Shown piece after piece: positions 3,956-61,235 of a DNA stretch of 64,000 bases (position 1 is its first letter; the number at the start of each line of letters is the position of its first letter). The notes under the pieces are model-generated. The model made no database searches. It saw only the letters and a program-made list of their open reading frames with translations, and had not been told where the DNA came from. Position numbers and translations under genes: made by a program. The DNA comes from an uncultured Methanosarcinales archaeon (GTDB lineage: Archaea > Nanobdellota > Nanobdellia > Woesearchaeales > ARS49), in NCBI GenBank assembly GCA_964550175.1, contig CAZJXP010000001.1:706774-770773 (forward strand), given 5' to 3'.

Positions 3956-4056
3956 CCTTTTTACCGCCCCGATTCGAACCGTTGGCTCAATTGAATTCAA
4001 AATTATTGCCGTACGCTACGACAAAAAGAGCCGGTAAAAAGTTTGGGCGGTAAAGA
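3956..4056. repeat. MITE-like interspersed repeat, copy A (TIR 'ctttttaccgccc' ... 'gggcggtaaagag')
   Basis: Shares a head and tail with copies at 6604, 10403, 16304, 20829, 30807 and 61137. Confidence 0.55.
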
Positions 4057-6348: not shown

Positions 6349-6570
6349 ATGGGATGCACCGCATGCAACGCGCCGTTGGCGCCGAACGACAAGTTCTGCG
6401 CAGCCTGCGGCGCGGTCCAGCAAAATGCCGCTCAGGTTTCTGAGATTATCGAGGATAGCGCTGACAACCAGGTCACGACCACGTGCGACAGATGCGGCGC
6501 GGGCTTGGTTTCGGGACAGATATTCTGCACCGTGTGCGGCAAACCTTCAGTTCAACTCGGCGAAGAGTGA
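6349..6570 (+). CDS. double zinc-ribbon protein
   Basis: 'CTACNAP...CAACG' and 'CDRCGAG...CTVCG'; TATA 'gtttaaatagc' about 25 nt upstream. Confidence 0.5.
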   Translation: MGCTACNAPLAPNDKFCAACGAVQQNAAQVSEIIEDSADNQVTTTCDRCGAGLVSGQIFCTVCGKPSVQLGEE

Positions 6571-6603
6571 GTTTGTAGTAGTCTTGGTTTCCTTGCCGTT
6601 CTT

Positions 6604-6687
6604 TTCCCAGGCAGATTTTGAGTAGTTTAGGCAATAATTCTATTTTGAATAGAGCCAACGGTTCTAATCTGGGCGGTAAAAAGTTTG
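6604..6687. repeat. MITE-like repeat, copy B (inverted orientation)
   Basis: Starts 'cagattttgagtag' and ends 'gggcggtaaaaag'. Confidence 0.55.
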
Positions 6688-6767
6688 CTTGGGAGAGCTT
6701 ACGTCGACAAAAACTATTGGCATTCATCACCATAATCCTTAAAAACACCTGCCACTCTGGAATAGTC

Positions 6768-7184
6768 ATGGACGAACGTCGACAACAGCTCAGGCGCGAT
6801 ATGGACTCCTACCTTTCGCAGCGGCGAAAGTCGGACTGGGGATTCTTTTCGAAGCCTGTTCTGCACCCGACGGTCCATCCTTACAAGAATAAGGAAATGA
6901 AGGAGGAATCGACCGTGGAATCATCCGAATCAACCGAACAAAAGAAAGGCTGGCTTTCCGGCATGGTCGACAAGCTCTTCGGCGAAGCGGCCGATGAAGA
7001 CGTTCCGGCAGAAGCGGTTTCTCAGGTTACTTCCACTGATGCGTCTGCTGACTTGAAGGAATTGGCGCGAATCTCGCTCGCGGTGATGAAGAAGATGCCG
7101 GGCGACCTCGTGCACGAGTTCAAGCAGTCCGCCGATTACGACCGATTCAAGGAACTTCTCCGCAAGCACCAACTCATCAAATGA
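6768..7184 (+). CDS. hypothetical protein
   Basis: The ORF-track start at 6618 lies inside repeat B, so the first Met after the repeat is used. The stop overlaps the next start (ATGA). Confidence 0.4.
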   Translation: MDERRQQLRRDMDSYLSQRRKSDWGFFSKPVLHPTVHPYKNKEMKEESTVESSESTEQKKGWLSGMVDKLFGEAADEDVPAEAVSQVTSTDASADLKELARISLAVMKKMPGDLVHEFKQSADYDRFKELLRKHQLIK

Positions 7185-7387
7185 GACTATTCGCTCTTTT
7201 CTGTCTGCTTTTGGTTCTTGCCGCGTGTTCGACGCCTTCTGAAAAGCCGGTTGCCGGCGGCGAGCAGGCGCCGAGCTGCATGTGCACGGCAAATTACGCT
7301 CCTGTGTGCGGCTCAGACGGGAAGACGTACAGCAACTCTTGCTTCGCGAATTGCGTGAAAGTAACTTTTGTCGAAGGCGAGTGCTAG
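7181..7387 (+). CDS. lipoprotein with Kazal-type serine-protease-inhibitor domain
   Basis: Lipobox 'LVLAAC'; Kazal signature 'C-MC-x7-PVCGSDGKTYSNSCFANC-x9-C' with six Cys. Confidence 0.65.
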   Translation: MRLFALFCLLLVLAACSTPSEKPVAGGEQAPSCMCTANYAPVCGSDGKTYSNSCFANCVKVTFVEGEC

Positions 7388-8259
7388 TTTCTCCAGAGAA
7401 GAAGCGCGTCGTTGCTTAAGCTGAATTTGTTTCCGTCCGTTGTCAACGTCAACGTCCCTTTCTCGTCCGTGCGGTAGACGTTGTTGTCCGTTTGGGCGTT
7501 CAAGCGCGTCATTACTTCCTGTCCCGGATGGCCGTATTGGTTGTTCAGGCCGACGCTGATCAATGCGACGGACGGGTTGATGGCGCTCACGAATTCTGCC
7601 GTGCTTGAGGTCTTGCTGCCGTGGTGGCCCGCGACGTAGACGTCGCTTTCTAATTGCGCGCCGTATTGGTTGATGACGGCGTGCTCGCACGCGCTTTCGC
7701 AGTCGCCTGGTAGTAGGATGCTTGTGTTTTTGTACGTGATTTTTAGGACGATGCTGTTGTCGTTATCGCCGTTGAATGCCAATGGTGTGTCTGGGTTGAG
7801 AACGTCAATCTGCGCCCCGCCGACGAGGAAAGACTGTCCGTCGTGCCAGTCCAAAAGAACGCTGCCTTCTATTTCGGCTTTCGTGTTCAATGAGGCGCAC
7901 GTTTTCGTGTCGCAGGGGACCTTCGGCTGCAGGTAATTCTTGATTTTAACCGTGTCAAAGGCCTTGATTAATCCGGCGGCATGATCTGAGTCGAGATTGC
8001 TGATCATTGCGTAGTCTATCGTCGTTATGCTGTAGTTCTCGAGGTAGCTGACGAGCCGGGTTCCGCTCTTGCCGGCGTCGTACAGCAGGGTTTCGTTGTC
8101 GGGCAGCTTGATGAGAATGGCCTGCCCTTGGCCGACGTCGAGCATCATGAGGGTCAGGATGCCTTCGGGGAAGGCTATTTTAGCGGGTTGGGGGTCGTTT
8201 ATGACGTTTCCCGTGACACAGCCGGCCAAAAGGAGGGCTAAAACGAGCTGCAGTTTCAT
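7384..8259 (-). CDS. MBL-fold metallo-hydrolase lipoprotein (ComEC C-terminal-domain-like)
   Basis: Lipobox 'LLAGC'; 'DVGQGQAILI', 'HxxxD' and 'AGHHGS' beta-lactamase-fold motifs. Confidence 0.7.
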   Translation of the reverse strand: MKLQLVLALLLAGCVTGNVINDPQPAKIAFPEGILTLMMLDVGQGQAILIKLPDNETLLYDAGKSGTRLVSYLENYSITTIDYAMISNLDSDHAAGLIKAFDTVKIKNYLQPKVPCDTKTCASLNTKAEIEGSVLLDWHDGQSFLVGGAQIDVLNPDTPLAFNGDNDNSIVLKITYKNTSILLPGDCESACEHAVINQYGAQLESDVYVAGHHGSKTSSTAEFVSAINPSVALISVGLNNQYGHPGQEVMTRLNAQTDNNVYRTDEKGTLTLTTDGNKFSLSNDALLLWRN

Positions 8260-8529
8260 GCCATTTTCATGAGTGGGACGTCTATAAAAGCCTTCGGAAG
8301 GCTTATATTTCAGGTCGTTTTACCTGTCAGATACTACTCCAGAGTGCTCTTAAATAGAAAGGTTTATATACCCTTTACACTATATCGTAGTAGTAACTCA
8401 AGTTATAATCACCTCTTTTTCCCGCGCGTACGCCCGCAAGGACGTGCGCTCGGGTTTCAACACTGCTTGACGACAGTCTCTTGGGGATAGTTTAGTTGTG
8501 TTTCGTTTGCTCTCCTTGACGCTCTTTTC

Positions 8530-8662
8530 CCCGGCAGATTTTGAGTACGTTTAATCGTCTTTAGAATTCTAGAAGTAACGACGATACAAAACGTGGCGGT
8601 ACAATCCGAATCCAGTTGGTTCGGATGTACAACAGGACTTGTCCTGTTCGTAAAAAGAGACT
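8530..8662. repeat. composite repeat, copy G (MITE tail + palindromic hairpin modules)
   Basis: 'ccggcagattttgag...gtggcggtac' + 'aatccgaatccagttggttcggatgtac' + 'acaggacttgtcctgt'. Same composite as 61091-61235, inverted. Confidence 0.5.
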
Positions 8663-8680
8663 TGATGGGCAGTGCAGAAA

Positions 8681-10345
8681 CTAACGTTTTCTTTTCTTCG
8701 CCGGCCGCATGAACCACGCGATCAACAGTCCGAGGATAACGCCGCCGAAGACGAGCCCGACGCGGTCCCAAGGCATCTGCCTGCGCGGGGATTTCTGCTC
8801 AAAATAGATGTCGAGATTGCTAAGCTCGGTCGCGTATTCGGCGAACAGCAATGATGAGTATTGATCCTCGTTGCGCAAGGCCTTTGCGTATTCATAATAG
8901 GAGTAGCCGATTAACGGAAAGATGTTCTTCGATTGCGATCGTGCAAGTGAACGTTGGGCAATGCTTAATTTGAGGTCGATGAGCGCTTGCGTCTGGTTCT
9001 CTTCGACACCGGTGACGGTGATTAACAAATCAGCCTCGGCTTTTGCTTTCGCGGCTTCGTGCAGGCACACGACCGGATTACCATCTTTCAATTCGTTTTC
9101 CGCGTGCTTCAAGGTCTTTAACGTGGCTTGCAATCCTTCGGGGTAGAATGTCTGCACATAGTTGTATCGTTCCTCGGCTTCGCTGAGCTTTTCTTGGCAA
9201 GAACGTAGCAGCGTTTCGTTCGTGAAGGTGGTGGCTTTTCCGCCGGTGCCGAAGAATCTCGTCCAAGCTTTTGCGCTGTTCGCGCGCTCGGTCGCGTATG
9301 CGAGGTCGCGCGTTGTCTCGTCATCGGGGCTTTCGTTCAACAGAAGCTCCGCGGCTTCTCGTGCCTCGTCGATTCGTTCTTTCACCATCATGAACGTCTG
9401 GACGTCCGTGATGGTTTGAAGTGGACGGGCCTTCAACGCATTGTCTTGCGCGTCGATGTCTTGGATGAGTTTTGCGGCCTGTTCTCGGAACTCGGTTATG
9501 TCGTTGATCTTGCTGAACTCCTTCTGCGACTGCGCGAGGTTCGCCCGGAAGCAGTACGACGCGGCGGAGTAATATTCCCCCTGCGCGAAATATGTGTCGG
9601 ACAATAGCGTGAGGTTGAGGATTTTTGGGTCGTCAGTCCTTGGCTTGTCGCACAGCTCTTCAGCGACAGCGCGCATCGTTGTTTTGTAGGTCTCGTCAAT
9701 CGTGAATTTCAGCGTTGATTGGACAAGGGGTTTGTTGGTGAACTGCTCAAGCGCCTCTTGGATAGTCGCGACCTCGACGATTTCGACGCCCAAAGTCTTT
9801 CCGTAGGCGATGAGGTCTGTGGTTTCGTTGCCGTCGCGGTAATGCGACGTTCCGGCCGGAATGAGAATCTTTGTCAAGCCATTAGTTGCGGCCGCGGTTA
9901 TCTTTTCCTTCGTGCCGCCAACAGGGCCGATGATTCCGCCCGAGTTTATCGTGCCGGTCATCGCGACGCTTTCGTTCAGTTTTCGCCCTTCGAGCAAGGT
10001 TGCGACGAGGACTGCGGCGGCTCCTCCCGCGGACGGCCCGCCGACGATACCTGGCGCGGCGTTGATCGTGAAGAAGAAATCGGTGTCGTCGCAGTCGTGG
10101 TCAAGCTCGTTGCAGACGACCTGCTTTGCAAGCCGCATCGAGATCTGCGTTGCGATCTTGGTTAACGGGAAGGTTTCGAGGAACACCCGTCCTGACCCGG
10201 GCTGGGTTTCCAAGGATAGATCCGCAAGCATGCCCGTGCTGTTGCCGTTTTCCTCAACTAAGGCCAAGAGTTTTAGATGGGCTTCTGCGGCGGAAACTGA
10301 TGGGATTAATAGAAGCGATAGGAGAATTAATGCGATGCATTTCAT
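8681..10345 (-). CDS. secreted/membrane-anchored Lon-like S16 serine peptidase (no AAA+ domain)
   Basis: Signal peptide; 'GPSAGGAAA' with the catalytic Ser and 'GGTKEKI' with the catalytic Lys; C-terminal TM segment plus 'KKRKR'. Confidence 0.75.
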   Translation of the reverse strand: MKCIALILLSLLLIPSVSAAEAHLKLLALVEENGNSTGMLADLSLETQPGSGRVFLETFPLTKIATQISMRLAKQVVCNELDHDCDDTDFFFTINAAPGIVGGPSAGGAAAVLVATLLEGRKLNESVAMTGTINSGGIIGPVGGTKEKITAAATNGLTKILIPAGTSHYRDGNETTDLIAYGKTLGVEIVEVATIQEALEQFTNKPLVQSTLKFTIDETYKTTMRAVAEELCDKPRTDDPKILNLTLLSDTYFAQGEYYSAASYCFRANLAQSQKEFSKINDITEFREQAAKLIQDIDAQDNALKARPLQTITDVQTFMMVKERIDEAREAAELLLNESPDDETTRDLAYATERANSAKAWTRFFGTGGKATTFTNETLLRSCQEKLSEAEERYNYVQTFYPEGLQATLKTLKHAENELKDGNPVVCLHEAAKAKAEADLLITVTGVEENQTQALIDLKLSIAQRSLARSQSKNIFPLIGYSYYEYAKALRNEDQYSSLLFAEYATELSNLDIYFEQKSPRRQMPWDRVGLVFGGVILGLLIAWFMRPAKKRKR

Positions 10346-10402
10346 TAGCTATTCTTCCTTGGTTATTGTATATAAGGATTTCCACACATTCGTCCTTGCT
10401 GA

Positions 10403-10487
10403 ACTTTTTACCGCCCCGATTAGAACCGTTGGCTCTATTCAAAATAAACTGATAGCCTAAACGACTCAAAATTCGCTGGTAAAAAGT
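10403..10487. repeat. MITE-like repeat, copy C
   Basis: 'ctttttaccgccccgattagaaccgttggctc...cgactcaaaattcgctggtaaaaag'. Confidence 0.55.
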
Positions 10488-14100: not shown

Positions 14101-15120
14101 ATGCACCACGATTTCGCCACCCAGTTCAAAGGAGAGGCGTTCCCGCAGATTCTCGGCCAGACTCAGACGAAGCACCAGCTGAAGTCTGCGTTATTGATGG
14201 ACCGCCATGTCATCATCGTCGGCCCGCCGGGCATTGGCAAAACGACGCTGGCCAAGAACGTGGCGCAACTTCTTCCGAGTATTCTTGTAAATGATTGTGA
14301 TTATCATTGCGACCCGCAGAAGCCGATGTGCCCGTCTTGCAAGAATAAGAAGGCAAAGACAATCAAAGTTTCTGGTGAAGACCGATTCATCCGCGTGCAA
14401 GGCAGTCCCGACTTGACGGCCGAGGATTTGCTCGGTGACATAGATCCAGTAAAGGCATTGCAGTTCGGCCCGACAAGCATCCAGGCGTTCACGCCCGGCA
14501 AAATATTCAAGGCCAACAATGGCATCTTGTTCTTCGATGAATTGAACCGCGCGCCCGAAAAATTGCAGAACGCGCTGCTGCAAGTTCTTGAGGAAGGAAA
14601 GGCAACCATCGGCAGCTACTCAATTGATTTGCCGGCGAACTTCATCTTCATCGGCACGATGAACCCGGAAGAGACCGCGGCAACCGAGAAATTATCCGAC
14701 GTGTTCCTTGACCGTTTCGACATCATCCACATGGGCTATCCTGAGACGGTCGAGCTCGAACGGCAGATTGTTCTGTCCCACGGCAAAAAGATTGAAGTTG
14801 CTTTTGATGTGAATTTACTGACGCTCGCGCTGTTCTTCGTTCGCTCATTACGACAGCACAAGGACGTGCAGAAGAAGCCGTCCGTGCGAGCGTCTTTGGG
14901 AATTTATGAGCGCGCGCAAGCGAACGCCTTCCTCGCGAAGCGAAAATCAGTAACGAGCCAGGATGTTTCGGATGCGCTCATCAGCGTGCTCGGCCACCGA
15001 CTCGAGCTTAAACCTTCAGCTAAATACTTGCAGTCATCCGACCAGTTCGTCGCAGAACAGTTCAAGAATTTCTTGCGGGACACCCCTGCATTCGAAGAGC
15101 ACGGTGGTGGTGGTCTTTGA
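14101..15120 (+). CDS. MoxR/ChlI-like AAA+ ATPase with Zn-ribbon insertion
   Basis: Walker A 'GPPGIGKTT'; Walker B 'ILFFDELNRA'; sensor 'GTMNPEE'; insertion 'CDYHCDPQKPMCPSCK'. Confidence 0.8.
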   Translation: MHHDFATQFKGEAFPQILGQTQTKHQLKSALLMDRHVIIVGPPGIGKTTLAKNVAQLLPSILVNDCDYHCDPQKPMCPSCKNKKAKTIKVSGEDRFIRVQGSPDLTAEDLLGDIDPVKALQFGPTSIQAFTPGKIFKANNGILFFDELNRAPEKLQNALLQVLEEGKATIGSYSIDLPANFIFIGTMNPEETAATEKLSDVFLDRFDIIHMGYPETVELERQIVLSHGKKIEVAFDVNLLTLALFFVRSLRQHKDVQKKPSVRASLGIYERAQANAFLAKRKSVTSQDVSDALISVLGHRLELKPSAKYLQSSDQFVAEQFKNFLRDTPAFEEHGGGGL

Positions 15121-16297
15121 CGTGGAGGACGTCAAAGTCCAAGACCTCCAAGATATAGACGAACTCGACGGGAAGCTTTCCAATTCTAAGGACGAAGCGC
15201 TTATGCATTCGGTGATGCAGAACGACAAGCAAACAATTGATGATGGTAAATTAATCGCGGATTCGTTCAATCAAGGGCTCGGAAGCTTTACGCCGGACAT
15301 TCTTTTTGAGCAGATTGTGAAGAACTATTCGCTTGCGAAACAATTGCTAGGGGATACGATTTTGCGTCTTGTGTCGGGGTATGACCCGAATTATATCGAG
15401 AAGAACCTGCCGATTCCTGAGTTCAGAAAACAACTGATGTCGAACATCCGCAAGAAGATCGACCAGCTCAAGGATAAGAAATTGCTGACGGACGACGGCA
15501 TGATTGCCGAAAAGGGCGTTGATTTAGCGAGCATGGTGCTCTATGTCGAAGAGCTCGACCATCTGATTCCCAAAGGCGCATTTGGCGAACGGACGCTCAA
15601 AAAACGAGCGCAGTACGGCGAGCATGGTGAGGCTCGGATTTATCGAAAGGGGGATAGGTATCGTGACGTCAGCGTGCGCAAGAGCGTGCGACTCGCGGTG
15701 CGACGCGGAAACGCGAAGCTTTCTCCGAACGATTTGAAAATCCAAGAGCGCCGGAGCAAAGGAACGGTTCATTTGATTTACGGCATCGACTCGAGCGCGA
15801 GCATGAAAGGAAGCAAGCTCGAGACGTGCAAAAAAGCAGGGATTGCGTTAGCGTATCAGGCCATCCAGCACAAGGACCTTGTCGGGCTAGTCGTGTTCGG
15901 AAACGAAGTCAAGAACTCGATTGCACCGACGAGCGACTTCAACCAATTGTTGCGGGCGTTGACGACCGTTAAAGCGTCGCGCGAGACCGACTTCACCGCT
16001 TTGATCATGAAAGCGATAGAATTGTTTCCGATTAATGATTCGACCCGGCATTTGATTATTCTTACTGACGCGATGCCGACCGTCGGCTTGGAGCCGCGCG
16101 AGGAGACCATCGCGGCGGTTGGACGAGCTGCCGCAGCGGGAATCACGCTGTCCATTGTTGGAATCCAGCTGGATAGAAATGGAACGTCTCTCGCAAAAGA
16201 AATGGTTCAGATCGGCAACGGACGTCTGTACTCCGTGAAGAACCTTGATGAAGTTGATAAACTTGTTTTGCAGGAATACGATGAGATTAGGGGATAG
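15110..16297 (+). CDS. VWA (MIDAS) domain protein, partner of the AAA+ ATPase
   Basis: MIDAS 'GIDSSASM' ... 'ILTDAMPT'. Start uncertain: a GTG overlapping the upstream stop, or the ATG at 15209. Confidence 0.7.
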   Translation: MVFDVEDVKVQDLQDIDELDGKLSNSKDEALMHSVMQNDKQTIDDGKLIADSFNQGLGSFTPDILFEQIVKNYSLAKQLLGDTILRLVSGYDPNYIEKNLPIPEFRKQLMSNIRKKIDQLKDKKLLTDDGMIAEKGVDLASMVLYVEELDHLIPKGAFGERTLKKRAQYGEHGEARIYRKGDRYRDVSVRKSVRLAVRRGNAKLSPNDLKIQERRSKGTVHLIYGIDSSASMKGSKLETCKKAGIALAYQAIQHKDLVGLVVFGNEVKNSIAPTSDFNQLLRALTTVKASRETDFTALIMKAIELFPINDSTRHLIILTDAMPTVGLEPREETIAAVGRAAAAGITLSIVGIQLDRNGTSLAKEMVQIGNGRLYSVKNLDEVDKLVLQEYDEIRG

Positions 16298-16303
16298 TCA
16301 AGA

Positions 16304-16412
16304 TACTTTTTACCGCCCAAACTTTTTACCGCCCCGATTAGAACCGGTGGCTCAATCGTAAATAGAATTATTGCCTAAACGACTCAAAATCTGCCGGCGC
16401 GAACCAACGTAA
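16304..16412. repeat. MITE-like repeat, copy D (duplicated head)
   Basis: 'ctttttaccgccc' ×2 ... 'cgactcaaaatctgccggcgcgaaccaacgt'. Confidence 0.55.
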
Positions 16413-23853: not shown

Positions 23854-24498
23854 CTAATATTTCAGATTTACCAGCGTATTGTTCAGGAACTTGAAAATAT
23901 CCTCCGTGACCTTGTCCTTCGGCTGGTTCGCGTCGATGTGCTTGACGATGCCGCGCGGCTCGTAGAACGCGATGACGGGTTTTGTGAGGGTTTCGTACTC
24001 ATGCATGCGTCGTGCAACAATCTCTTTCGTGGTGTCATCGTGACGCGTGAACAACGGAATCCTGCACTGGCCGCATAGCGCGGGATTGCTCAAGCCGTCC
24101 GTTAGCCCGAAGACCCGTCCGCATTGGTTGCAGCAACGCCGCGCCATAAGGCGCTCTTTCGCGATTTCTTGCGGCAGATCCAACGCGAGCACATATTGAG
24201 GCCGGCTTATGTTGTCAAGCGCTTTCGCCTGAGCTACCGTTCTCGGGAAACCGTCCCAAAGCCTGCCTTGCCGCACCGGTTTCGTCATAAGATACTCGAT
24301 CATCAGGTCGTCCGGCACAAGCTGTCCGTCGTCTTTGATGACACGTAATTTTCTCCCGTAATACGTGTCCTGCTTGACTTCCGCACGGATGAGGTCTCCG
24401 GTTGAAAGATGAACGATGCCATAATGGGCTTCGATGCGCTTGCCTTGCGTGCCCTTGCCCGCGCCTGGAATGCTAATGAGCACGACGTCTATGCTCAC
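23854..24498 (-). CDS. adk: adenylate kinase (long form with Zn lid)
   Basis: P-loop 'GAGKGTQ'; lid 'CNQCGRV...CGQC'. Confidence 0.9.
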   Translation of the reverse strand: MSIDVVLISIPGAGKGTQGKRIEAHYGIVHLSTGDLIRAEVKQDTYYGRKLRVIKDDGQLVPDDLMIEYLMTKPVRQGRLWDGFPRTVAQAKALDNISRPQYVLALDLPQEIAKERLMARRCCNQCGRVFGLTDGLSNPALCGQCRIPLFTRHDDTTKEIVARRMHEYETLTKPVIAFYEPRGIVKHIDANQPKDKVTEDIFKFLNNTLVNLKY

Positions 24499-25235
24499 CT
24501 AAATCCCTCCAACGTGGACTGCTTCTTGTCAAACTCTTCCAAGTATTTCGGCGGCTTTATCGCTTTGAACTCGTAGCCCCAATCCTCGAGCATCGCTTTC
24601 GCGTTTTCGGTGATCTTCGGGGCGGCGAGGATGCCGCGAATCTTTGAGACTCCCTTGCTGACCATCATCTTTTCTATGTAACGTCGTAATTGTGTGACGG
24701 CTGAAAGGTCGGCGCAGTAGCGCTTGCATTCGACAATCGTTAACGTTCCGTTCTTGTCCGTCCCGAACACGTCGATGAACCCGTATGCGGTTTGTTCTTC
24801 TCTTGAGACTGGCTTGAACCCGGTTTCGATCATCTCTGGATGCTCATAGAGCATGTTGCTCATGTCCTCTTCCGTGCCACTGACGACAATCGTTTGGCTG
24901 TCTTCCAGCTTTTGCGAGTTGTAGAAATGGATTCGGTCAAGCTGGATGTCCAAGAATTCCTTGAACGCGAGGTTTTTGCTTTTGAGCAACAGATGGTTGC
25001 CCTCGACCACGACGCTGTGGCTCGTCTCGGGCTTCATGTAGTTGATCGGGGCGTTCCCGGTCGGCTGGTGCACAAGAATAGCTTTATCATTTTTGATGAG
25101 AATAATCCGGTCGCCGCGGCCCAAGACGCTTTCCGCTCGTCCCGAGTAGCGGATGGAACAGGTGCAGCCGATGACGAGAGTTTCGTTGCGGGACAGCGCG
25201 TCGGTGATGAGCGTGGCATAGTCCTGCAAGTTCAT
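24495..25235 (-). CDS. nucS: mismatch endonuclease NucS/EndoMS
   Basis: C-terminal RecB-like 'GFIDVFGTDKNGTLTIVECKR...QLRRY'. 4-nt overlap with adk. Confidence 0.85.
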   Translation of the reverse strand: MNLQDYATLITDALSRNETLVIGCTCSIRYSGRAESVLGRGDRIILIKNDKAILVHQPTGNAPINYMKPETSHSVVVEGNHLLLKSKNLAFKEFLDIQLDRIHFYNSQKLEDSQTIVVSGTEEDMSNMLYEHPEMIETGFKPVSREEQTAYGFIDVFGTDKNGTLTIVECKRYCADLSAVTQLRRYIEKMMVSKGVSKIRGILAAPKITENAKAMLEDWGYEFKAIKPPKYLEEFDKKQSTLEGFR

Positions 25236-25258
25236 GGTGAGAAGGAATAATTGAGGGT

Positions 25259-26305
25259 TTATTTACTTTTGGTCATGCCGGCGTACGTCAGCATTTCATC
25301 ATGGAGGACTTCGAGCTTGACATTCGCGCGCTTGAACAGCTCGCGGGTCTTCTGGGCGCCGTGGTAGCGCTTGTCAGCTACGACTCGCGCGATTCCCGCG
25401 GTGATGATGAGCTTCGCGCAGACATAGCAGGGCTCCATGCGCACATAGATTGTTCCACCGTTGATTGCGATGCCGTGCTTCGCGGCCTGTGCAAGTGCGT
25501 TCTGCTCGGCGTGCGTTGTTCGGATGCAGTGCATCCTCGGCTTCCCGTCGTCTCCGATGACTTCCTGAATCTCGTGGCCGACCTCATCGCAATGCGGGAC
25601 CCCTTTCGGTGAGCCGACGTAGCCGGTCGCGAGAAGCTGTTTGTCCTTGACGATGACCGAACCAGCACGTCCTCGGTCGCAGGTCGAACGCTTCGCGACT
25701 TCGTTCGCGATGTTCATGAAATACTCGTCCCAGCTCGGCCTCGGGAGCGCGAGCTTATGCCCCCAATCGTCGATGAACTTGTCAATTTTCTTGTGGAGCT
25801 GCTCTAACGTGCCGTCGTTCTTGATTACGATTCTTGCGAGCTTGACGGTTCGGTTGAGCTGCTGATGCGAGGGATTGTCGTGGTTTTCCTGCTGCTCGCA
25901 TCTTTTCAGGTCGTTCGCGGTCTTTATTTTCTTATCTTCCGGCTTGTTTCTTGCCTTTATTCTTTCAAACCGGACGCCGAACGGCGCATCGATGCACAAC
26001 AGGATGAAGTCTTTTCGTTTCTTTAGTTCTTCAACCTCGTGCGGGTTTCTGATGCTGCTGATGACAAAATTCTTGTCGGCGTCGATCTTCTTTATCGCGC
26101 GCTCGCCTAACACTCCCGGCCCGAACTTTTCTCTCAACTCGTTCCCGAGATTGATGAGATTCTCCCTGGTCACCTCTGTTCCCCGAACCTTCGCTTCCTC
26201 GCGGATCATGTCAGAAAGAGAAAAATGGCCGTATCCCTTGGACATCAAGTAGTCGGCGACCGTGTCCTTGCCGCTGCAATACAAGCCTGTGAGCCCGATA
26301 AGCAT
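25259..26305 (-). CDS. fusion of P-loop (d)NMP-kinase-like domain with dCMP deaminase domain
   Basis: N-terminal 'GLTGLYCSGKDT' Walker A. C-terminal 'HAEQNA...PCYVCAKLI' cytidine/dCMP deaminase zinc motif. Confidence 0.75.
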   Translation of the reverse strand: MLIGLTGLYCSGKDTVADYLMSKGYGHFSLSDMIREEAKVRGTEVTRENLINLGNELREKFGPGVLGERAIKKIDADKNFVISSIRNPHEVEELKKRKDFILLCIDAPFGVRFERIKARNKPEDKKIKTANDLKRCEQQENHDNPSHQQLNRTVKLARIVIKNDGTLEQLHKKIDKFIDDWGHKLALPRPSWDEYFMNIANEVAKRSTCDRGRAGSVIVKDKQLLATGYVGSPKGVPHCDEVGHEIQEVIGDDGKPRMHCIRTTHAEQNALAQAAKHGIAINGGTIYVRMEPCYVCAKLIITAGIARVVADKRYHGAQKTRELFKRANVKLEVLHDEMLTYAGMTKSK

Positions 26306-26472
26306 GGATTTTCAATTCTCCTGTTGCTTAAATGGATTCTGCGTCGCAGAAGTAGAGGTTAGAAACGCATCGTTATTGACGACAAATTTCGTCTTTATAA
26401 ACTTCTGACCAGTCAAGAATACACGTTGGATGACAATAATCGATTTAAGTATGGGTTGAGAGAAAAATCGAT

Positions 26473-27624
26473 ATGGGGGAGTTCGTAAAAAACAAATATG
26501 GCGTGCTACCGCGCCAGGAACTTCTCGACGCATTTGATTGCGGAATGCTCAGTTCTGAAACGGATCCAAAATCATATATGCAGCCCGCGAGCGTCGACAT
26601 TCCGCTCGGCGAACGAGTCATTCGTTTAAAATCATCGTTTTTGCCCGATAATAAGATAGGGTCCGTTGAGGCAACCATTAAAAAATTGAGTCGTGATGAA
26701 TTTTCTTTAAATGAGCTTGTTCCCAAAGCGTTAGTTCGCGGACAAACCTATCTTGCCGAATTGGATATGGAAGCTAACTTACAGAAAAATTATTCTGGCA
26801 CGCTTAATCCAAAAAGCACAACCGGACGAGCGGACTGTCTCACGCGGGTTATTGTCGACGGCGTGCGCAATTATGATACGGTGTCGGAAGGAAAGGGGCG
26901 AAAATTCTGGCTTGAAATCACTCCCTTGAGCTGGGACGTGAAAGTGACCAAAGGCCTCGCACTTAATCAGTTGCGATTATCCTACGGCGAAAATCCGCTT
27001 GATGAAGGAGCATTAGTCATGGCATACATGAAGACTCCGTTGCTTATCGACCCGGAAGGACAGACCATACCCATTGAAAAAGCGTGCTTCAAGCGAGGCG
27101 GGCTGGAAATGACCGTTGACCTCGATGCGGATATTGTAGGGTATAAAGCGAAAAGAAATTCGCTCCTCGAGTTCAATCTTAGCGCGGAAAAAGGGACGCT
27201 TGCGGAACAACAAAACAAGTTCTTTGAGCCGATTGAGCGCCCGAAAGATGGCGAGCTGGTTCTTGAACCCGATACGTTCTACCTGCTCGGCACGCGTGAA
27301 AAAGCGGTGATTCCCGAGGGTCTTTGCGGCACATTGCGGGCGTACGATCCGGCATCGGCCGAAGGACGCGTTCATTACGCCGGTTTCTTCGATCCGGGCT
27401 TTTGCGCGCACGCAACATTGGAAGTCAGACTCAATCATTTACCGTTCTTGATCAAGGATGGACAGCCCATCTGCGTCTTGCAGTACGAACGCATGAAGGA
27501 CATTCCCCGCGACGAGAACGGCGAACCAAAGCTCTATGTGGGGAATTACCAGGACCAGCCGAGAGGACCTAACTTGCCGAAACAGTTCGGCGTGCGGAAA
27601 GTAGAAGCGGGAAGTTTGAGGTGA
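26473..27624 (+). CDS. dcd: dCTP deaminase-like protein, long form (dUTPase fold)
   Basis: 'LGTREKAVIPEGLCGTLRAYDPASAEGRVHYAGFFDPGF' dUTPase/dCTP-deaminase beta-barrel motif. 383 aa. Confidence 0.65.
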   Translation: MGEFVKNKYGVLPRQELLDAFDCGMLSSETDPKSYMQPASVDIPLGERVIRLKSSFLPDNKIGSVEATIKKLSRDEFSLNELVPKALVRGQTYLAELDMEANLQKNYSGTLNPKSTTGRADCLTRVIVDGVRNYDTVSEGKGRKFWLEITPLSWDVKVTKGLALNQLRLSYGENPLDEGALVMAYMKTPLLIDPEGQTIPIEKACFKRGGLEMTVDLDADIVGYKAKRNSLLEFNLSAEKGTLAEQQNKFFEPIERPKDGELVLEPDTFYLLGTREKAVIPEGLCGTLRAYDPASAEGRVHYAGFFDPGFCAHATLEVRLNHLPFLIKDGQPICVLQYERMKDIPRDENGEPKLYVGNYQDQPRGPNLPKQFGVRKVEAGSLR

Positions 27625-29336
27625 ACAGGATGACAGGAACACTAGCCCCATTAGTCAAGCACAGAGAATATTCTGAGCCTGAAAAGGTTGTGCTGAATCA
27701 TTTTTTCACTAACACGGACAAAAACATCTATTGCCCAACCGAGCATATGCCCTCTCCTGTCTGGACATTCCTTGTCGGCCAATACAGCAGAACGCCAGTT
27801 TCAATGCGCGAGCGCTTCATCGACATCTTTGACATGATGAAATCGCGCTCGGAGAAAGGAGATTGGCCAAAGAATGAAACCGTGACCGTCGAGCAGGCTG
27901 CCGACGCCATCGGCGCAGGCAAGCACGTTCCGCTCTCGTTCTTTTTTAAGACCGCGGAGAATTTCCTCGCGAAATGGGGCGTGCAGTACGGCCACAACTC
28001 GCTCAAGGACGCAGATATCGTGCGTGTCGCAATTGAAGGAGTGACGCAGACAGCGACTAACTTCATTGAGATGCCTGACCCTGAATTGGGCGCATACCAG
28101 GAAAAATCAACCAGATACATTCCATTCAGCAAGGATGACGTTGTCATTCCGCCGAGATTGGCGAACTCCCATTTTGGTCAGCGCATCAAGGCGTTGAATG
28201 ACCAGCGTATGGAAACTTATGAGCGTTGGACGCCGATATTCAGGCAATGGCTCGCGGAAAACGTGGTGCTGCGAAAGGATCACAAGACTGATGCCGCGCA
28301 CAACGGCACGCTCACCGCGCGCACGTTCGACACGATGCGATACTTCCTTCCGTTGGGGCTGACGACGTCGCTTGGCGCAACATGGCCGACCAGAGTCGCG
28401 GAAATACACCTCTCTCAGATGCTCAGCCATCCGACGGAAGAGATGCAGCTTATTGGCAAAAGCATCCTTGAAGAAGGCGTCAAGATTACGCCAGGTCTTC
28501 TACGCCATGTTAAGCCGAACGAATATTTCGGGGAAACGACGGCATCTATGAGTGAGTTGACGAGAAGCATTATAGATGCACAGCCCACCAAATATCATCG
28601 TGGCGACAGCACACTCAAGCATGCGACACTCGTCCATGCAACGCCAGGACTTGAAGACTTGCTGATTACCGGCATGCTTTATGAGTTTACGGCCAACCGT
28701 TCGTTCGCAGAACTGCAGGGCACGATTAAGGGGTTCAGCGATGCGCAGAAAGACGCCATCTTTGATGAATATCTCCGTCGACGCGGACCTCACGACCTGA
28801 TGATGCGTGGCGTAAAGCTCGGCCAGTTCACATTTGATTATTTCATTGACCACGGTGCGGCGCGGGATGTAAAACGTCAGCGCGTAGGTACGATGCTACA
28901 CCAACGTATCGGCGCGGATGAAGGGTATTCTTACCCTGAGTTCATGGAGCACGAACCTGACCTTGCTCAACTGAAAGCAGATTATGAAAAGCTGATGGAG
29001 ACCACAAGCGAACTTTACCGCGAAGTCGATCGGGATTTCCCGAATGATTCCTGCTATATTCCATCGATGGGACACCTCGGGCGCTGGCTTCATGAACATC
29101 ATGCAAGGCAAGGATCTTATGAGATCGAGCTCAGAACCCCGAGCGCCGGTCACTTTTCGTATCGACGCCTTTACCAAGAGGAATTCCGAGAAATTGAAAA
29201 AATCGCGCCGCGGTTCGCAAAATACATCCGCGCAGTGATGGGCCAAACGTCCAGCGGACGAGCGGAAGCAGAAGAGCGTGCCGCAGCGAAAGCGGCTAAG
29301 GCACTGGAAGAAGACCGAAAGAGGGCCGCACAATGA
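27621..29336 (+). CDS. hypothetical 571-aa protein in the thymidylate-synthase position of the operon (at best a very divergent ThyX-like)
   Basis: 4-nt overlaps with dcd upstream and tmk downstream. Only weak ThyX-like fragments ('YQEKSTRY'; 'TSLGATWPTRVAEIHLSQ'). The canonical RHR is absent. No ThyA 'PCH'. Confidence 0.5.
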   Translation: MNRMTGTLAPLVKHREYSEPEKVVLNHFFTNTDKNIYCPTEHMPSPVWTFLVGQYSRTPVSMRERFIDIFDMMKSRSEKGDWPKNETVTVEQAADAIGAGKHVPLSFFFKTAENFLAKWGVQYGHNSLKDADIVRVAIEGVTQTATNFIEMPDPELGAYQEKSTRYIPFSKDDVVIPPRLANSHFGQRIKALNDQRMETYERWTPIFRQWLAENVVLRKDHKTDAAHNGTLTARTFDTMRYFLPLGLTTSLGATWPTRVAEIHLSQMLSHPTEEMQLIGKSILEEGVKITPGLLRHVKPNEYFGETTASMSELTRSIIDAQPTKYHRGDSTLKHATLVHATPGLEDLLITGMLYEFTANRSFAELQGTIKGFSDAQKDAIFDEYLRRRGPHDLMMRGVKLGQFTFDYFIDHGAARDVKRQRVGTMLHQRIGADEGYSYPEFMEHEPDLAQLKADYEKLMETTSELYREVDRDFPNDSCYIPSMGHLGRWLHEHHARQGSYEIELRTPSAGHFSYRRLYQEEFREIEKIAPRFAKYIRAVMGQTSSGRAEAEERAAAKAAKALEEDRKRAAQ

Positions 29337-29965
29337 GCGACGGACTGTTTGTTGTATTAGAAGGCATTGACGGCTGCGGCAAGGGCACGCAGATGAAACG
29401 TTTGGCGAACAAACTATTCGACATGAACAAGCGTCATCATGTCGTCATGACGCGAGAACCAGGACGAAGCGATTACGGTATCGAAATCAGGAAAATATTG
29501 GCGGAAACAAACGATCCTTACCAACAAGGCGTTCGGCTTGCGCAACTATTTGTTGATGACCGGCGCAGGCATGTTGAAGGAATTATTTTGCCAACACTCG
29601 CCTACGGCGGAATCGCTTTGTCCGACCGTTATAAACATTCCACGTTGACATTTCAACACGCGCAAGGCATTCCCATGGATGAACTGTTGGCAATGCATGA
29701 AGGGCTCCCCGTCCCTGACCTCACCGTGATACTTGATGTTCCTTCTGAGGTTGGAATGGCGCGAATCGGAAAGGATACGAGCCGCGAAAAGCCAGAGTCA
29801 TTTGAGAAATTGGAATTTCAGGAAAAGCTTCGTTGGTTTTATCGCGGATTGTGTCTTACGCTTAAAGATGAGACCATTAAAATTATTGACGCAAATCGCA
29901 AACCAGAAGAGATTGAAATTGATGTCTTGAATGCAGTTATGCCTTATTTAGAAAAGGTAAAATAA
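29333..29965 (+). CDS. tmk: thymidylate kinase
   Basis: 'VVLEGIDGCGKGTQ' P-loop, DRY-like 'SDRY', lid region. Confidence 0.85.
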   Translation: MSDGLFVVLEGIDGCGKGTQMKRLANKLFDMNKRHHVVMTREPGRSDYGIEIRKILAETNDPYQQGVRLAQLFVDDRRRHVEGIILPTLAYGGIALSDRYKHSTLTFQHAQGIPMDELLAMHEGLPVPDLTVILDVPSEVGMARIGKDTSREKPESFEKLEFQEKLRWFYRGLCLTLKDETIKIIDANRKPEEIEIDVLNAVMPYLEKVK

Positions 29966-30911: not shown

Positions 30912-32771
30912 TTACTTTTTCTCGTACACAAACGCCCCATCCCAGTCCTTGGCTGGCGGATGCTTCAAGTAGAGTTCGCAGCGTTCGATGAACAACGCGC
31001 AGGACGGGTCGTTCGGTCGGATCTTTGCAGTTTCTTTGAATCCCTTGAGCGCGTCGTGGAACTTTGCCTTGAAATACAGCTCCAACGCCTTTTCGAACGA
31101 CGTGACGAACGCTTGGTCCTGGTCGACGCATAAATGATAGAGTAAAACAGGAACCTTTTTTCCCTTCACTTTCACGGCGTCGAGCTTGCGGCATAAATAT
31201 TTGCCTTTGATGTGCTCGTACGTGCTTTCCGAGATGAGGATGCTGACGCCGTACTCTTTGGTGAGCCCTTCCATGCGCGAGGCAAGGTTGACCGTGTCGC
31301 CGATGGCCGTATAGTCAAACCGTTCTTCCGAGCCCATGTTACCGACTACGGCCGGGCCGGTGTGGATGCCGATGCCGATGTTCAACGACGGGACGTTGCG
31401 CTGCTTCCAATTGGCTTGCAATTCGCGAAGCGCTTTGATTTGCTCGACGGCTGTGTCACAGGCCTTCACCGCGTGGGCATCATCAAGTAAGGGGGCGTTC
31501 CACAACGCCATGATGGCGTCCCCGATGAACTTGTCAACAGTTCCTTGGTGCTTGAGCACGATGCGCGTCATCGTGGTGAGATATTCATTCAAGAGATGGA
31601 CCAATTCTTCCGGCGAGAGCTTTTCGCTGATGCTGGTGAAGTCGCGTATGTCCGAGAACATGACCGTGAGGATTCTTTTTTCGCCACCGAGCGTCAACTG
31701 CTGGTTTTTTGAAAGTATTTCATCCAACAGTTCTTTGCTCACATATTTCGAGAACGCGTCGCGCAAATACGCCCCTTTCGTTTTTTCCTCTGTGTACGCC
31801 ACGCTCACGCCTGCGCCGGTGAAGACGGCGAACGCCAACGGGGCGAAAAACAGGTCGATAAGGAGGTTGAACTGGTTGAACGAGATGATGGCGACAATTG
31901 CGTAAACGACAAGCAACCCGATTGCCAACGGGATGGCGTAATAATACTTCAGGCGCGCGATGAGAAACATGCCAGCAAGCGCGGCGAGGATGACGCCGAG
32001 CATTACAATCAGTTTGTCCGGCGCGCGCAAGAAATCATTGTTGATGATGTTTTGGAGTATGTTTGCGTGAATCTCGACGCCGGGCATAGCTTTTCCGTCC
32101 GACGTCGGCACAAAATAGTCGTCGTGCAAGTTCGGGGCCGTCGCGCCGATCAGGACAATCTTGTTCGCGAAACTGAGATTTTTTGCGAGCACGTCGTTGA
32201 CGCTGACGGTTTTGAACGAATGAGGGGCATCCGCGAAGTTGATGAGCAACGTTTCTTTTTCGGTCGGAGTGGCGTAACCAGCCTGTTCCGCGATGGCGAA
32301 TGAGAACGGCTTCATATCATTCGCGATGCTCGGGTTTACTCGGCGCGTTATCCCGTCAGCGTCCCCGAGAAGGTTCACATAGCCCGTGATTGACGGGAAT
32401 ATCGGCAAATACGTCACTCCTTGCTGGATTTCGGACGCTAACACGACGTTATCCATCGACTGTAACGTCGTATTCAAGAGAACATCATTCGGGCTCGGCT
32501 CAAAAAAAGAAACATCAATGCCGATTACTTTCGCGTCATTCAGTTTCTCGAGAAGATTCGCGTGGACGTCGCGGCTCCAAGGCCAGTGGCCGATTGAGTT
32601 GATGCTCGCGTCATCGATTGCGACGATGACGATGCTGTCAAGAACCGCGTTACCGCCGTACAGCTTGTCCGTGAGCGTGCCCCGCACGTGGCTGAACGAA
32701 TCAACCTGCACGAGCAGCAGCGCAAGCGCGAGCAGCCCGAGGAAAATCCCTAGCTTGCCAACTTTAGCCAT
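30912..32771 (-). CDS. CHASE2 sensor – class III adenylyl cyclase – TPR protein
   Basis: Signal/TM + periplasmic CHASE2 + 3 TM; cyclase motifs 'FSDIRDFT', 'DKFIGDAIMALW', 'IGIHTGPAVVGNMG', 'NLASRME'; C-terminal TPR-like helices. Confidence 0.85.
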   Translation of the reverse strand: MAKVGKLGIFLGLLALALLLVQVDSFSHVRGTLTDKLYGGNAVLDSIVIVAIDDASINSIGHWPWSRDVHANLLEKLNDAKVIGIDVSFFEPSPNDVLLNTTLQSMDNVVLASEIQQGVTYLPIFPSITGYVNLLGDADGITRRVNPSIANDMKPFSFAIAEQAGYATPTEKETLLINFADAPHSFKTVSVNDVLAKNLSFANKIVLIGATAPNLHDDYFVPTSDGKAMPGVEIHANILQNIINNDFLRAPDKLIVMLGVILAALAGMFLIARLKYYYAIPLAIGLLVVYAIVAIISFNQFNLLIDLFFAPLAFAVFTGAGVSVAYTEEKTKGAYLRDAFSKYVSKELLDEILSKNQQLTLGGEKRILTVMFSDIRDFTSISEKLSPEELVHLLNEYLTTMTRIVLKHQGTVDKFIGDAIMALWNAPLLDDAHAVKACDTAVEQIKALRELQANWKQRNVPSLNIGIGIHTGPAVVGNMGSEERFDYTAIGDTVNLASRMEGLTKEYGVSILISESTYEHIKGKYLCRKLDAVKVKGKKVPVLLYHLCVDQDQAFVTSFEKALELYFKAKFHDALKGFKETAKIRPNDPSCALFIERCELYLKHPPAKDWDGAFVYEKK

Positions 32772-46058: not shown

Positions 46059-46820
46059 ATGGAAATAAACGCACAAACTGCGGAATTATGCGGCATCATT
46101 CTTGGTGATGGTCACATGCATAAAACGAAAAATCGAATAACGATCTCTGGCAGCAAGGATGACATCCATTATTTCCGCAACCGAGTTATTCCCTTGTTTC
46201 TCCAATGTTTCCCAGACATACATCCCGTATTAGTTCGACTTAAAACAGCCGAGGCATATAATCTTCAAGTTGAGAATAAGTTAGCATTTCAGTTTTTTAT
46301 TCAATCATATAATTTGCAACGGGGACCCAAAGAGGCTATGCACATTCCTTTAGTCATCCTTGCGAATGATTCACTTATTCCTCATTTTCTCCGAGGACTT
46401 TTTGATACTGATGGTTCATTTAAATTTTGCAAACAGGCACGCGGTTATGCATATTACCCTCGAATACGCATTGCTTTAGCCGAGTCTCCTCTCACTGATG
46501 CGTTACAGTTCCTTTTTACGCGCGCGGGATTTAAGGCGATAAAATCAGTGAAACTGAATCATGGGTTTGCAACGATGAAGAATCTTGTAACCTACGAAAT
46601 TTCCGGTTGCGCGGCTTTTGAACGGTGGATGACTCATATTTGTCCCGCTAATCCTGTGCAAAAAGCAAAGTATGACTATTGGACGAAATATGGACGTCAT
46701 GAGCCAGGAATGATTTATGAAGAAAGAATTTACAAAATAGCCTCGGGCGGATTCGAACCGCCGTCAACGCGTCCAGAGCGCGCTATACTTGACCAACTAT
46801 ACGACGAGGCTTTAAAGTAA
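46059..46820 (+). CDS. free-standing LAGLIDADG homing endonuclease (double motif)
   Basis: 'LCGIILGDGHM' and 'LRGLFDTDGSF'. Own TATA 'catataaatg' about 22 nt upstream. The last ~28 codons are antisense to tRNA-Gln. Confidence 0.7.
   Translation: MEINAQTAELCGIILGDGHMHKTKNRITISGSKDDIHYFRNRVIPLFLQCFPDIHPVLVRLKTAEAYNLQVENKLAFQFFIQSYNLQRGPKEAMHIPLVILANDSLIPHFLRGLFDTDGSFKFCKQARGYAYYPRIRIALAESPLTDALQFLFTRAGFKAIKSVKLNHGFATMKNLVTYEISGCAAFERWMTHICPANPVQKAKYDYWTKYGRHEPGMIYEERIYKIASGGFEPPSTRPERAILDQLYDEALK
46738..46811 (-). tRNA. tRNA-Gln (anticodon CTG)
   Basis: Acceptor AGCCTCG/CGAGGCT (A1:U72); D stem GTAT/GTAT; anticodon stem GCGCG/CGCGT with loop CTCTGGA; T arm GGCGG-TTCGAAT-CCGCC. TATA 'agctttttaaacc' upstream. 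Confidence 0.8.
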
Positions 46821-61090: not shown

Positions 61091-61235
61091 AGGACTCGAA
61101 GTCCTCTTGTACATCCGAACCCACTGGATTCGGATTGTACCGCCCCGATTGGACGAGTTTAGGCTATGATGCTATTTACTATCGAGCCACTCACTCAAAA
61201 TCTGCCGGGGCGAAGCCAACGTGCGGGGAAGAGCA
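61091..61235. repeat. composite repeat, copy F (hairpin modules + MITE core + tail)
   Basis: 'gaggactcgaagtcctc' + 'gtacatccgaacccactggattcggattgtacc' + 'gccccgattgg...ctcactcaaaatctgccggggcgaagccaacgtgcgggg'. Confidence 0.55.

Follow-up and report, generated by a model that had tools for sequence, protein, structure and literature searches.

A Kazal-type lipoprotein of Woesearchaeota appears to be an accessory of a conserved gene neighborhood rather than a dedicated partner of its S16 ectoprotease

The Kazal inhibitors of MEROPS family I1 are known to act on Ser-His-Asp proteases of the S1 and S8 families, and none is known to act on the Ser-Lys dyad enzymes of family S16. Secreted Kazal effectors of parasites and pathogens occur in Phytophthora (EPI1 and EPI10) and Toxoplasma (TgPI-1), and these, together with bacterial ecotin, are functional analogues of the archaeal protein considered here. 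In the archaea, Kazal proteins have been catalogued as arCOG10350 (PMC6697440), the fold has been noted as unique to the DPANN archaea and possibly transferred (PMC13607799), and lipoproteins have been found to be prevalent in DPANN genomes (PMC12462473). Little is understood of the means by which DPANN archaea acquire their amino acids and nucleotides, or of what enables them to persist on other cells or in their vicinity. The Kazal gene examined here lies in a 64,000-nucleotide stretch of contig CAZJXP010000001.1 (henceforth, the window) and adds to an already known family in an unusual setting, close to the genes of a metallo-beta-lactamase (MBL)-fold lipoprotein and of a membrane-tethered S16 peptidase. 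A sequence-only reading of the window had joined these three genes into an extracellular proteolysis cluster, with the Kazal protein and the peptidase as a possible protease/inhibitor control system. The comparisons reported below uphold the identities of the genes and, through their topology signals, the extracytoplasmic location of all three products, but they place the Kazal gene and the peptidase in separate evolutionary settings. The four genes on which the argument rests, including the open reading frame (ORF) upstream of the Kazal gene (upORF), are as follows:

6768–7184, plus strand: upORF, a conserved Woesearchaeal protein of 138 amino acids, with its ATG at 6768 and its stop overlapping the Kazal start (ATGA)
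7181–7387, plus strand: Kazal-type single-domain inhibitor lipoprotein, 68 amino acids (Pfam, PDB sequence matches, alignment, AlphaFold2, Foldseek)
7384–8259, minus strand: ComEC-type MBL-fold lipoprotein, 291 amino acids (family and PDB matches)
8681–10345, minus strand: S16 (Lon-type) ectoprotease, 554 amino acids (Lon_C family match, AlphaFold2 model, Foldseek, homolog alignment)

The Kazal motif recognized from the sequence alone is confirmed by family, structural and cysteine-spacing comparisons. The ORF matches the Pfam families Kazal_1 (E = 4.6e-10, 39.8 bits for a cut-off of 21) and Kazal_2 (E = 4e-8, 33.7 bits for a cut-off of 22.8), and its PDB sequence matches comprise agrin (1.5e-13, the best), ovomucoid (3.6e-12), rhodniin (1.3e-10) and infestin (6.5e-10), as well as follistatin and RECK. 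The protein contains the motif PVCGSDGKTYSNSCFANC and six cysteines; their arrangement, C33-x-C35-x7-C43-x10-C54-x3-C58-x9-C68, follows the "non-classical" pattern that rhodniin and infestin also have. C35, C43, C54 and C68 are invariant in 16 of 16 aligned homologs, C33 and C58 are each absent from one member, and the residues that hold the loop (P41, C43, Y50 and N52) are invariant across the alignment. The AlphaFold2 model, obtained with 16 homologs as input, shows a beta-hairpin and a helix (residues 53–58), with a predicted local distance difference test score (pLDDT) of 81–96 for residues 31–68. In Foldseek searches, this model lies within 1.0–1.3 Å root-mean-square deviation (rmsd) of GmSPI2, LDTI and infestin (probability 1.00, identity up to 53%), with target-normalised template modeling (TM) scores of up to 0.85, and the predicted structure is that of an alpha+beta Kazal fold.

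Archaeal lipoproteins of the AliA/AliB-dependent kind carry a lipobox of the form [LVI][ASTVI][GAS]C that closes the signal peptide (motif definition from PMC12462473), and both the Kazal protein (L13-A14-A15-C16) and the MBL protein (L-A-G-C14) fit this pattern. Cys16 is conserved among the Kazal homologs; the mature protein would begin at this residue, presumably in lipidated form, followed by a linker of ~17 residues (residues 17–32, window 7229–7276) and by the Kazal domain proper (residues 33–68). Nearly all archaeal orthologs display a G-G-[EQ] motif in the linker (VAGGEQ, ISGGE, IGGGQ) that is missing from the divergent copies at L057 and L058 (L numbers denote the loci and contigs compared) and from the other Kazal lipoproteins. 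The loop C35-T-A-N-Y-A-P-V-C43 aligns with C-T-L-E-Y-R-P-L-C in the third domain of ovomucoid (CT-A-NY against CT-L-EY), and the predicted reactive site hence runs C35 (P3), T36 (P2), A37 (P1) and N38 (P1'). Among archaeal orthologs, P1 is variously A, Q, E, T, K or S on an invariant scaffold, and in the divergent L057 and L058 orthologs Cys5 has been lost and the loop is altered. A variable P1 residue on a fixed scaffold is usual for Kazal inhibitors that meet diverse proteases. The alanine at P1 in the window protein suggests elastase- or subtilisin-like targets.

Only 16 close relatives of the Kazal protein were found in a search of 5.8 billion proteins. The sequence-only reading had described Kazal domains as very uncommon in prokaryotes, but this proved an overstatement, given the existence of arCOG10350 and the 351 Kazal relatives, many with prokaryotic lipoboxes, that were recovered in a pattern scan of metagenome contigs. 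The genes next to non-archaeal Kazal lipoproteins in these contigs reveal no consistent protease partner, the exceptions being fusions of trypsin and Kazal domains. Two such fusions (L132, 4635–8276, and L142, 5082–8771) encode secreted proteins of more than 1200 amino acids with an N-terminal trypsin-like S1 domain (VVGG, TAAHC) and a Kazal domain, on contigs that are uncultured and probably bacterial. Elsewhere, on low-GC contigs (38–41% GC; L095, L096, L106, L099 and L108), tandem two- or multi-domain Kazal lipoproteins are encoded by up to three adjacent genes, and Kazal lipoproteins have clearly expanded in some uncultured prokaryotes.

The relationship between the Kazal gene and S16 was assessed in 80 sampled S16 loci with flanks of up to 10 kb, in which all ORFs of at least 30 amino acids were searched with hidden Markov models of the Kazal and upORF alignments; further archaeal Kazal loci were gathered from context look-ups and from the metagenome contig scan. 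A Kazal gene is present in six of the 80 loci and missing from the remaining 74; among the 46 whose flank on the relevant side reaches 4 kb or more, four carry it. The upORF gene is present in 23 of the sampled loci, 17 of them without Kazal, and in these 17 it lies 1.0–3.8 kb beyond S16, which is the range observed in Kazal-bearing loci of the same orientation. In 60 loci the flank sufficed to look past S16 in the other direction, and 45 of these have TopA there. Each archaeal Kazal gene found has an upORF ortholog immediately before it, while at L003, L100 and L114 the upORF-Kazal pair has no S16 within 6–8 kb, or none between Kazal and TopA. As judged from gene order, TopA - S16 - ... - upORF - ... 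- PolX is an old syntenic block in which the Kazal gene is a clade-restricted insertion, and the Kazal gene would lie near S16 because it inherited an older upORF-S16 synteny. The invariant neighbor of the Kazal gene is thus upORF and not S16; no dedicated Kazal-S16 gene pair emerges from these loci, and the Kazal gene is best described as an occasional add-on to upORF. The survey of co-occurrence called for in the sequence-only reading did find both genes together, but revealed no co-distribution beyond the shared ancestry of their neighborhood, and since nearly all Woesearchaeota have S16 and descent accounts for the short distance between the genes, their co-occurrence is itself uninformative. 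With 74 of 80 S16 loci lacking Kazal, with upORF as its constant neighbor and with three Kazal loci that have no S16 nearby, the proposed protease/inhibitor control system is left unsupported.

The S16 protein conforms to its initial description as a signal peptide-bearing peptidase without an ATPase domain and with a C-terminal transmembrane segment, encoded on the strand opposite to the Kazal gene at a distance of 1.3 kb between stop codons. It matches Pfam Lon_C (E = 9.8e-13, 48.6 bits for a cut-off of 21.1) and, weakly, the NCBIfam SepM family NF041438 (E = 3e-6), and PDB profile matches relate it to Lon P-domains. The AlphaFold2 model (pLDDT 85.5, predicted TM score 0.81) comprises a Lon P-domain (residues 20–205), a series of helices (218–509), a transmembrane segment (526–545) and a basic KKRKR tail, preceded in the sequence by a Sec-type signal peptide (residues 1–19, cleavage VSA↓AE). 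Foldseek aligns the model with the P-domain of E. coli Lon at TM scores of 0.77–0.80. Across 13 homologs, neither Ser105 (GPS105AG) nor K148 varies, and 43 residues separate the two, as in Lon. The cysteine-rich, all-helical domain of ~300 residues, which has no Pfam match, contains six cysteines that are likewise invariant among the homologs. Searches against Pfam and NCBIfam gave no match to an AAA+ module, and the model contains the P-domain and helices only; because it lacks this module, the protein belongs to the S16 peptidases but falls outside the Lon proteases as strictly defined (LonA, LonB or LonC). Homologs exceed 1493 at E ≤ 1e-3, with relatives in 471 species-representative genomes, and S16 is near-universal in the Woesearchaeota. 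One homolog carries the JGI label "predicted S18 family serine protease", and a literature search on the S16 family (COG1750-type) returned nothing useful.

The gene downstream of S16 offers a more consistent association. In the window this position is occupied by the MBL lipoprotein, which is encoded on the S16 strand, convergently with the Kazal gene and overlapping it by 4 nt. Its identification as a lipoprotein resembling the C-terminal part of ComEC was correct: it matches Lactamase_B (E = 1.1e-10), the C-terminal portion of the ComEC_Rec2 model TIGR00361 (E = 9e-35, model positions 442–663 of 663) and PDB chains of the ComEC beta-lactamase-like domain (E = 2e-24), its lipobox cysteine is conserved among homologs, and the metal-binding motifs DVGQG, GDCE, GHHGS and YGHP are invariant. 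Motif 2, by contrast, reads NLDSDH in the window and L001, as against HADADH in L002, L009 and L010. In Kazal-less loci, the gene immediately downstream of S16 encodes on the same strand a lipobox protein of ~290 (sometimes ~150) amino acids with HKD motifs, which matches the phospholipase D (PLD) family PLDc_2 of Pfam (E ~ 1e-33) and has the endonuclease Nuc (1byr) as its best PDB relative, followed by Zucchini/MitoPLD and NucT. In a tblastn survey, 47 of the 69 loci with enough flank had a PLDc_2 gene no more than 3 kb downstream of S16, always on the S16 strand and in most cases at a distance of 170–400 nt. The ComEC-type MBL fills the same slot in four loci of the window's clade in addition to the window itself, and a lipoprotein of the staphylococcal nuclease (SNase) type adjoins Kazal in the L004/L011/L122 lineage, in L100 and in L114. 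Lipoboxes are conserved in the Kazal, MBL, PLD and SNase proteins. The exchange of three unrelated nuclease-containing, lipobox-anchored folds at a single position argues that the slot encodes a surface nuclease, and hence that S16 and the nuclease, rather than S16 and Kazal, are the conserved pair. The nuclease-like lipoprotein encoded just downstream of S16 is its widely conserved partner, the two most likely forming a surface scavenging pair, and the MBL lipoprotein would probably be a surface nuclease. Its initial assignment to a proteolytic system does not hold, as it is a homolog of the ComEC nuclease domain and its place is taken elsewhere by PLD/Nuc and SNase proteins. No description of this S16 layout, or of its pairing with interchangeable nuclease lipoproteins, was found in the literature searched, and a search for work on DPANN surface nucleases gave nothing useful.

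These observations can be brought together in a model, judged probable with some reserve, in which the Kazal protein is a canonical surface inhibitor of S1/S8-type proteases acquired by a subset of the Woesearchaeota, while S16 and the nuclease constitute a separate and much older module. S16 would be a type-I membrane ectoprotease, freed of its Sec signal peptide and anchored by its C-terminal transmembrane helix and basic tail, with the Ser105-Lys148 protease domain and the helical domain facing outward and the six invariant cysteines probably disulfide-bonded. Beside it would stand a lipobox-anchored nuclease, usually of the PLD/Nuc type but replaced here by a ComEC-type MBL and in another clade by an SNase-type protein, and the two enzymes would break down protein and nucleic acid outside the cell, whose products could then be taken up. 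The Kazal protein would be exported, lipid-anchored at Cys16 and kept near the membrane by its ~17-residue linker, where it is predicted to act as a Laskowski-type (substrate-like), tight-binding inhibitor of S1/S8-type proteases through C35-T36-A37↓N38-Y39. Its likely role would be to shield surface proteins from foreign proteases, of host or competitor origin, or from self-secreted ones. In this model, the Kazal gene is a clade-restricted accessory gene that would be translated by coupling to the 3' end of a conserved upORF.

The coupling itself can be read in the sequence, where the ATGA overlap of upORF and Kazal at 7181–7184 (atc aaA TGA gac) is just as initially reported. Spacing between the two genes is −4 nt (ATGA) in almost all loci; the exceptions are L100, L003 and L097, where 20, 33 and 52 nt, respectively, lie between them. 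The upORF family comprises proteins of ~125–175 amino acids in which a basic, conserved N-terminus is followed by an acidic stretch of low complexity and then by a C-terminal helix, also conserved, that ends in FK..LKKHNLIK. A profile search of 1.84 billion representatives returned 556 representative clusters at E ≤ 1e-3, and Pfam and PDB scans with a query alignment of 18 family members gave no known domain or solved structure. No signal peptide or transmembrane segment was detected in upORF, which is probably cytoplasmic, and its coupling to an exported protein is therefore most likely a matter of hitch-hiking on expression, with no physical association of the two proteins. The 81-amino acid Kazal ORF of L010 (8411–8656; GCA_964362535.1, CAYIEN010000006.1), which also overlaps the upORF stop (ATGA), was missed in the gene calls of its assembly, and counts of archaeal Kazal genes in protein databases are therefore underestimates. 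In several lineages, the 3' ends of Kazal and of the convergent gene (MBL, SOD or SNase) overlap by 4–23 nt (window 7384–7387; L002 997–1000; L003 6198–6201; L004 6236–6258), which leaves no room for a terminator between them.

The block is flanked by a further conserved gene and by copies of an intergenic repeat:

6349–6570, plus strand: double zinc-ribbon protein (ZnR), 73 amino acids (Pfam DZR/Zn_ribbon, synteny)
6584–6700, plus strand: repeat copy preceding upORF (repeat detection, further searches)
10402–10486, minus strand: inverted repeat copy upstream of the S16 start codon (86% over 85 nt)
3957–4010, minus strand: further repeat copy (54 nt)
16318–16395, minus strand: further repeat copy
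8507–8547, plus strand: partial repeat copy (first 41 nt of the 6584–6700 copy)
61192–61215, minus strand: partial repeat copy

ZnR is a conserved left-hand neighbor of upORF among the closest relatives. The repeat unit spans ~75–117 nt around the core GAGCCAACGGTTCTAATCGGGGCGGTAAAAAG, and four copies fall within the first 16.4 kb of the window, against zero expected by chance. The copies at 6584–6700 and 10402–10486 bracket upORF-Kazal-MBL-S16. No copy was detected in the loci of relatives, which makes the repeat specific to this genome, and it has no Rfam or tRNA match; a hairpin can be predicted, but the consensus fold has no compensatory changes and hence no covariation support. The repeat could be an element resembling a miniature inverted-repeat transposable element (MITE) or a regulatory site. 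The possibility that it supplies a shared promoter for upORF and S16 was rejected, as the copies at 3957 and 16318 follow unrelated plus-strand genes and relatives have none. Its arms were likewise discarded as inversion breakpoints, as the inversion seen in L010, L014 and L016 takes in ZnR and its left breakpoint therefore lies to the left of the arm.

Several observations weigh against the model of a canonical Kazal inhibitor that stands apart from an S16-nuclease module. Of 14 distinct archaeal Kazal loci whose flanks could be used, 11 have S16 within 4 kb of Kazal; the ZnR-upORF-Kazal-MBL-S16 block has been inverted as a unit in some relatives (L010, L014 and L016); the 85-nt repeat upstream of both transcription units could indicate co-regulation in this genome; and no S1 or S8 protease was detected in the 64-kb window by Pfam scans of ~47 ORFs and motif scans, although the window covers ~6% of the ~0.97-Mb contig. 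Together with S16 being the only serine protease noticed in the window, and with both proteins being predicted on the outer face of the membrane, these facts would agree with the Kazal lipoprotein being a dedicated surface regulator that blocks the active site of the neighboring S16 until it is needed. Such a regulator would be without precedent, both as a protein inhibitor of a Lon-family (Ser-Lys dyad) peptidase and as one half of an archaeal protease/inhibitor pair at the cell surface, and it would control the protease-plus-nuclease "feeding" module of a DPANN symbiont. This role is nonetheless unlikely. The great majority of sampled S16 loci have no Kazal gene, the upORF-S16 synteny persists at equal spacing without it, so that descent accounts for the proximity, and three loci (L003, L100 and L114) maintain Kazal with no adjacent S16. 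Furthermore, the P1 residue of Kazal varies while the catalytic region of S16 is invariant, two further copies of the repeat lie in unrelated positions and none was detected in relatives, and the known targets of MEROPS I1 inhibitors are S1 and S8 proteases, not S16 dyad enzymes.

Doubts may also be raised about the inhibitory function of the Kazal domain and about the substrate of the older module. The best PDB sequence match of the Kazal protein is agrin, follistatin and RECK are matched as well, the L057 and L058 orthologs have lost Cys5 and changed their loop, and the Woesearchaeota are presumed to be symbionts, all of which would suit a non-inhibitory, disulfide-rich binding module, akin to those of follistatin and agrin, that mediates adhesion to host cells or surface partners. 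The invariance of the residues that support a canonical loop (P41, C43, Y50 and N52) speaks against this idea, as do the single-domain architecture, with no further module, and the nearest structures, which are genuine inhibitors of one domain (1.0–1.3 Å, identity up to 53%); a non-inhibitory binding module is hence quite improbable. As for the module, PLD and MBL folds also include lipid phosphodiesterases, MitoPLD having been deposited as a "cardiolipin hydrolase", and the replacement of the first His of motif 2 by Asn in the window MBL may weaken or alter a nuclease. S16 and its conserved PLD or MBL partner might attack the host envelope, the protease acting on the S-layer and the partner on lipids, instead of scavenging nucleic acids, with Kazal shielding the symbiont's own surface. 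The top matches of these lipoproteins are, however, nucleases (Nuc, NucT and the ComEC nuclease domain), and the third replacement, SNase, has no lipid-hydrolysing members, so that little credence is given to envelope attack.

The genomic context is that of a Woesearchaeota (DPANN) archaeon with a small genome, as the nearest relatives of the block's proteins are in metagenome-assembled genomes of Candidatus Woesearchaeota and Nanoarchaeia, and the window contains archaeal housekeeping genes for PolX, JAB, TopA, FtsZ, aEF-1beta, Trm1 and an XPD-type helicase. Contigs L013, L014, L022 and many others show Woesearchaeota synteny under the third-party annotation title "uncultured Methanosarcinales archaeon", and a 3-kb contig with S16 and VRR-NUC genes (L015) has been assigned to a "Candidatus Binatia bacterium" bin; wrong taxonomic labels or contaminated bins are the likely cause. 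A nucleotide-salvage and dNTP cluster at 23854–29965, encoding adenylate kinase, NucS, a kinase-dCMP deaminase fusion, dCTP deaminase, a 571-amino acid ThyX-like protein and thymidylate kinase, would fit a scavenging lifestyle. Elsewhere in the window, a MoxR-type AAA ATPase gene is followed by one for a VWA-domain protein (14101–16297), a pair that in L010 lies beside the TopA/VRR-NUC side of the block, and a LAGLIDADG-domain ORF (E = 8e-7; 46059–46820, plus strand) and a gene for tRNA-Gln(CTG) (46738–46811, minus strand) overlap on opposite strands. Two signaling proteins are also encoded, one with a GGDEF diguanylate cyclase domain (56023–57357, plus strand, E = 1e-25) and one with CHASE2 and adenylate/guanylate cyclase domains (30912–32771, minus strand, E = 7e-50 and 1e-28). 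Cyclic-di-GMP-type signaling domains are unusual in archaea.

The present analysis defines a small, well-delimited family of Kazal inhibitors, predicted to be lipid-anchored, in the Woesearchaeota, and an ectoprotease of novel domain layout that nearly all members of this group encode. An appealing but unsupported operon-style inference, that of a pairing between Kazal and S16, is set right, and in its place the analysis documents a protease-nuclease pairing in which three nuclease folds are swapped. This swapping is good evidence, from genomes, that the position has a nuclease function and that a surface scavenging module exists.

Compared to known systems, the window Kazal protein is closest to the non-classical inhibitors of MEROPS I1, with which it shares the CGSDGKTYSN core, the predicted fold and the register of the reactive loop, and it has the cysteine spacing (C-x-C-x7-C-x10-C-x3-C-xn-C) of GmSPI2 (Galleria silk protease inhibitor 2, 4hgu), LDTI (leech-derived tryptase inhibitor, 1an1/1ldt), infestin (2erw, 2f3c) and rhodniin (1tbq). 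Unlike these freely secreted proteins, it is archaeal, carries a lipobox anchor, a GG[EQ] linker and an alanine at P1, and its gene is translationally coupled to an unrelated gene for a probably cytoplasmic protein. It resembles EPI1, EPI10, TgPI-1 and ecotin in being, by prediction, an exported canonical serine-protease inhibitor of a host-associated organism, thought to neutralise foreign S1/S8 proteases; yet EPI1, EPI10 and TgPI-1 are multi-domain and soluble, and ecotin has a different fold and is periplasmic, whereas the window protein has a single domain and is predicted to be membrane-anchored. On the protease side, S16 has the Lon_C fold, the Ser-Lys dyad and the 43-residue spacing of the extracytoplasmic SepM (NF041438) and YlbL peptidases of Firmicutes and of the LonA/LonB proteolytic domain, and like SepM it is predicted to be membrane-tethered and outward-facing, without an AAA+ motor. 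It differs from SepM and YlbL in having no PDZ domain and in placing the protease domain at the N-terminus, followed by the ~300-residue, Cys-containing helical domain and by a C-terminal anchor. Lastly, the window MBL is akin to the C-terminal domain of ComEC, and the slot proteins of relatives to Nuc/NucT and SNase, but in contrast to ComEC they are free-standing lipoproteins outside a DNA channel, and motif 2 in the window clade takes the form NxDxDH.

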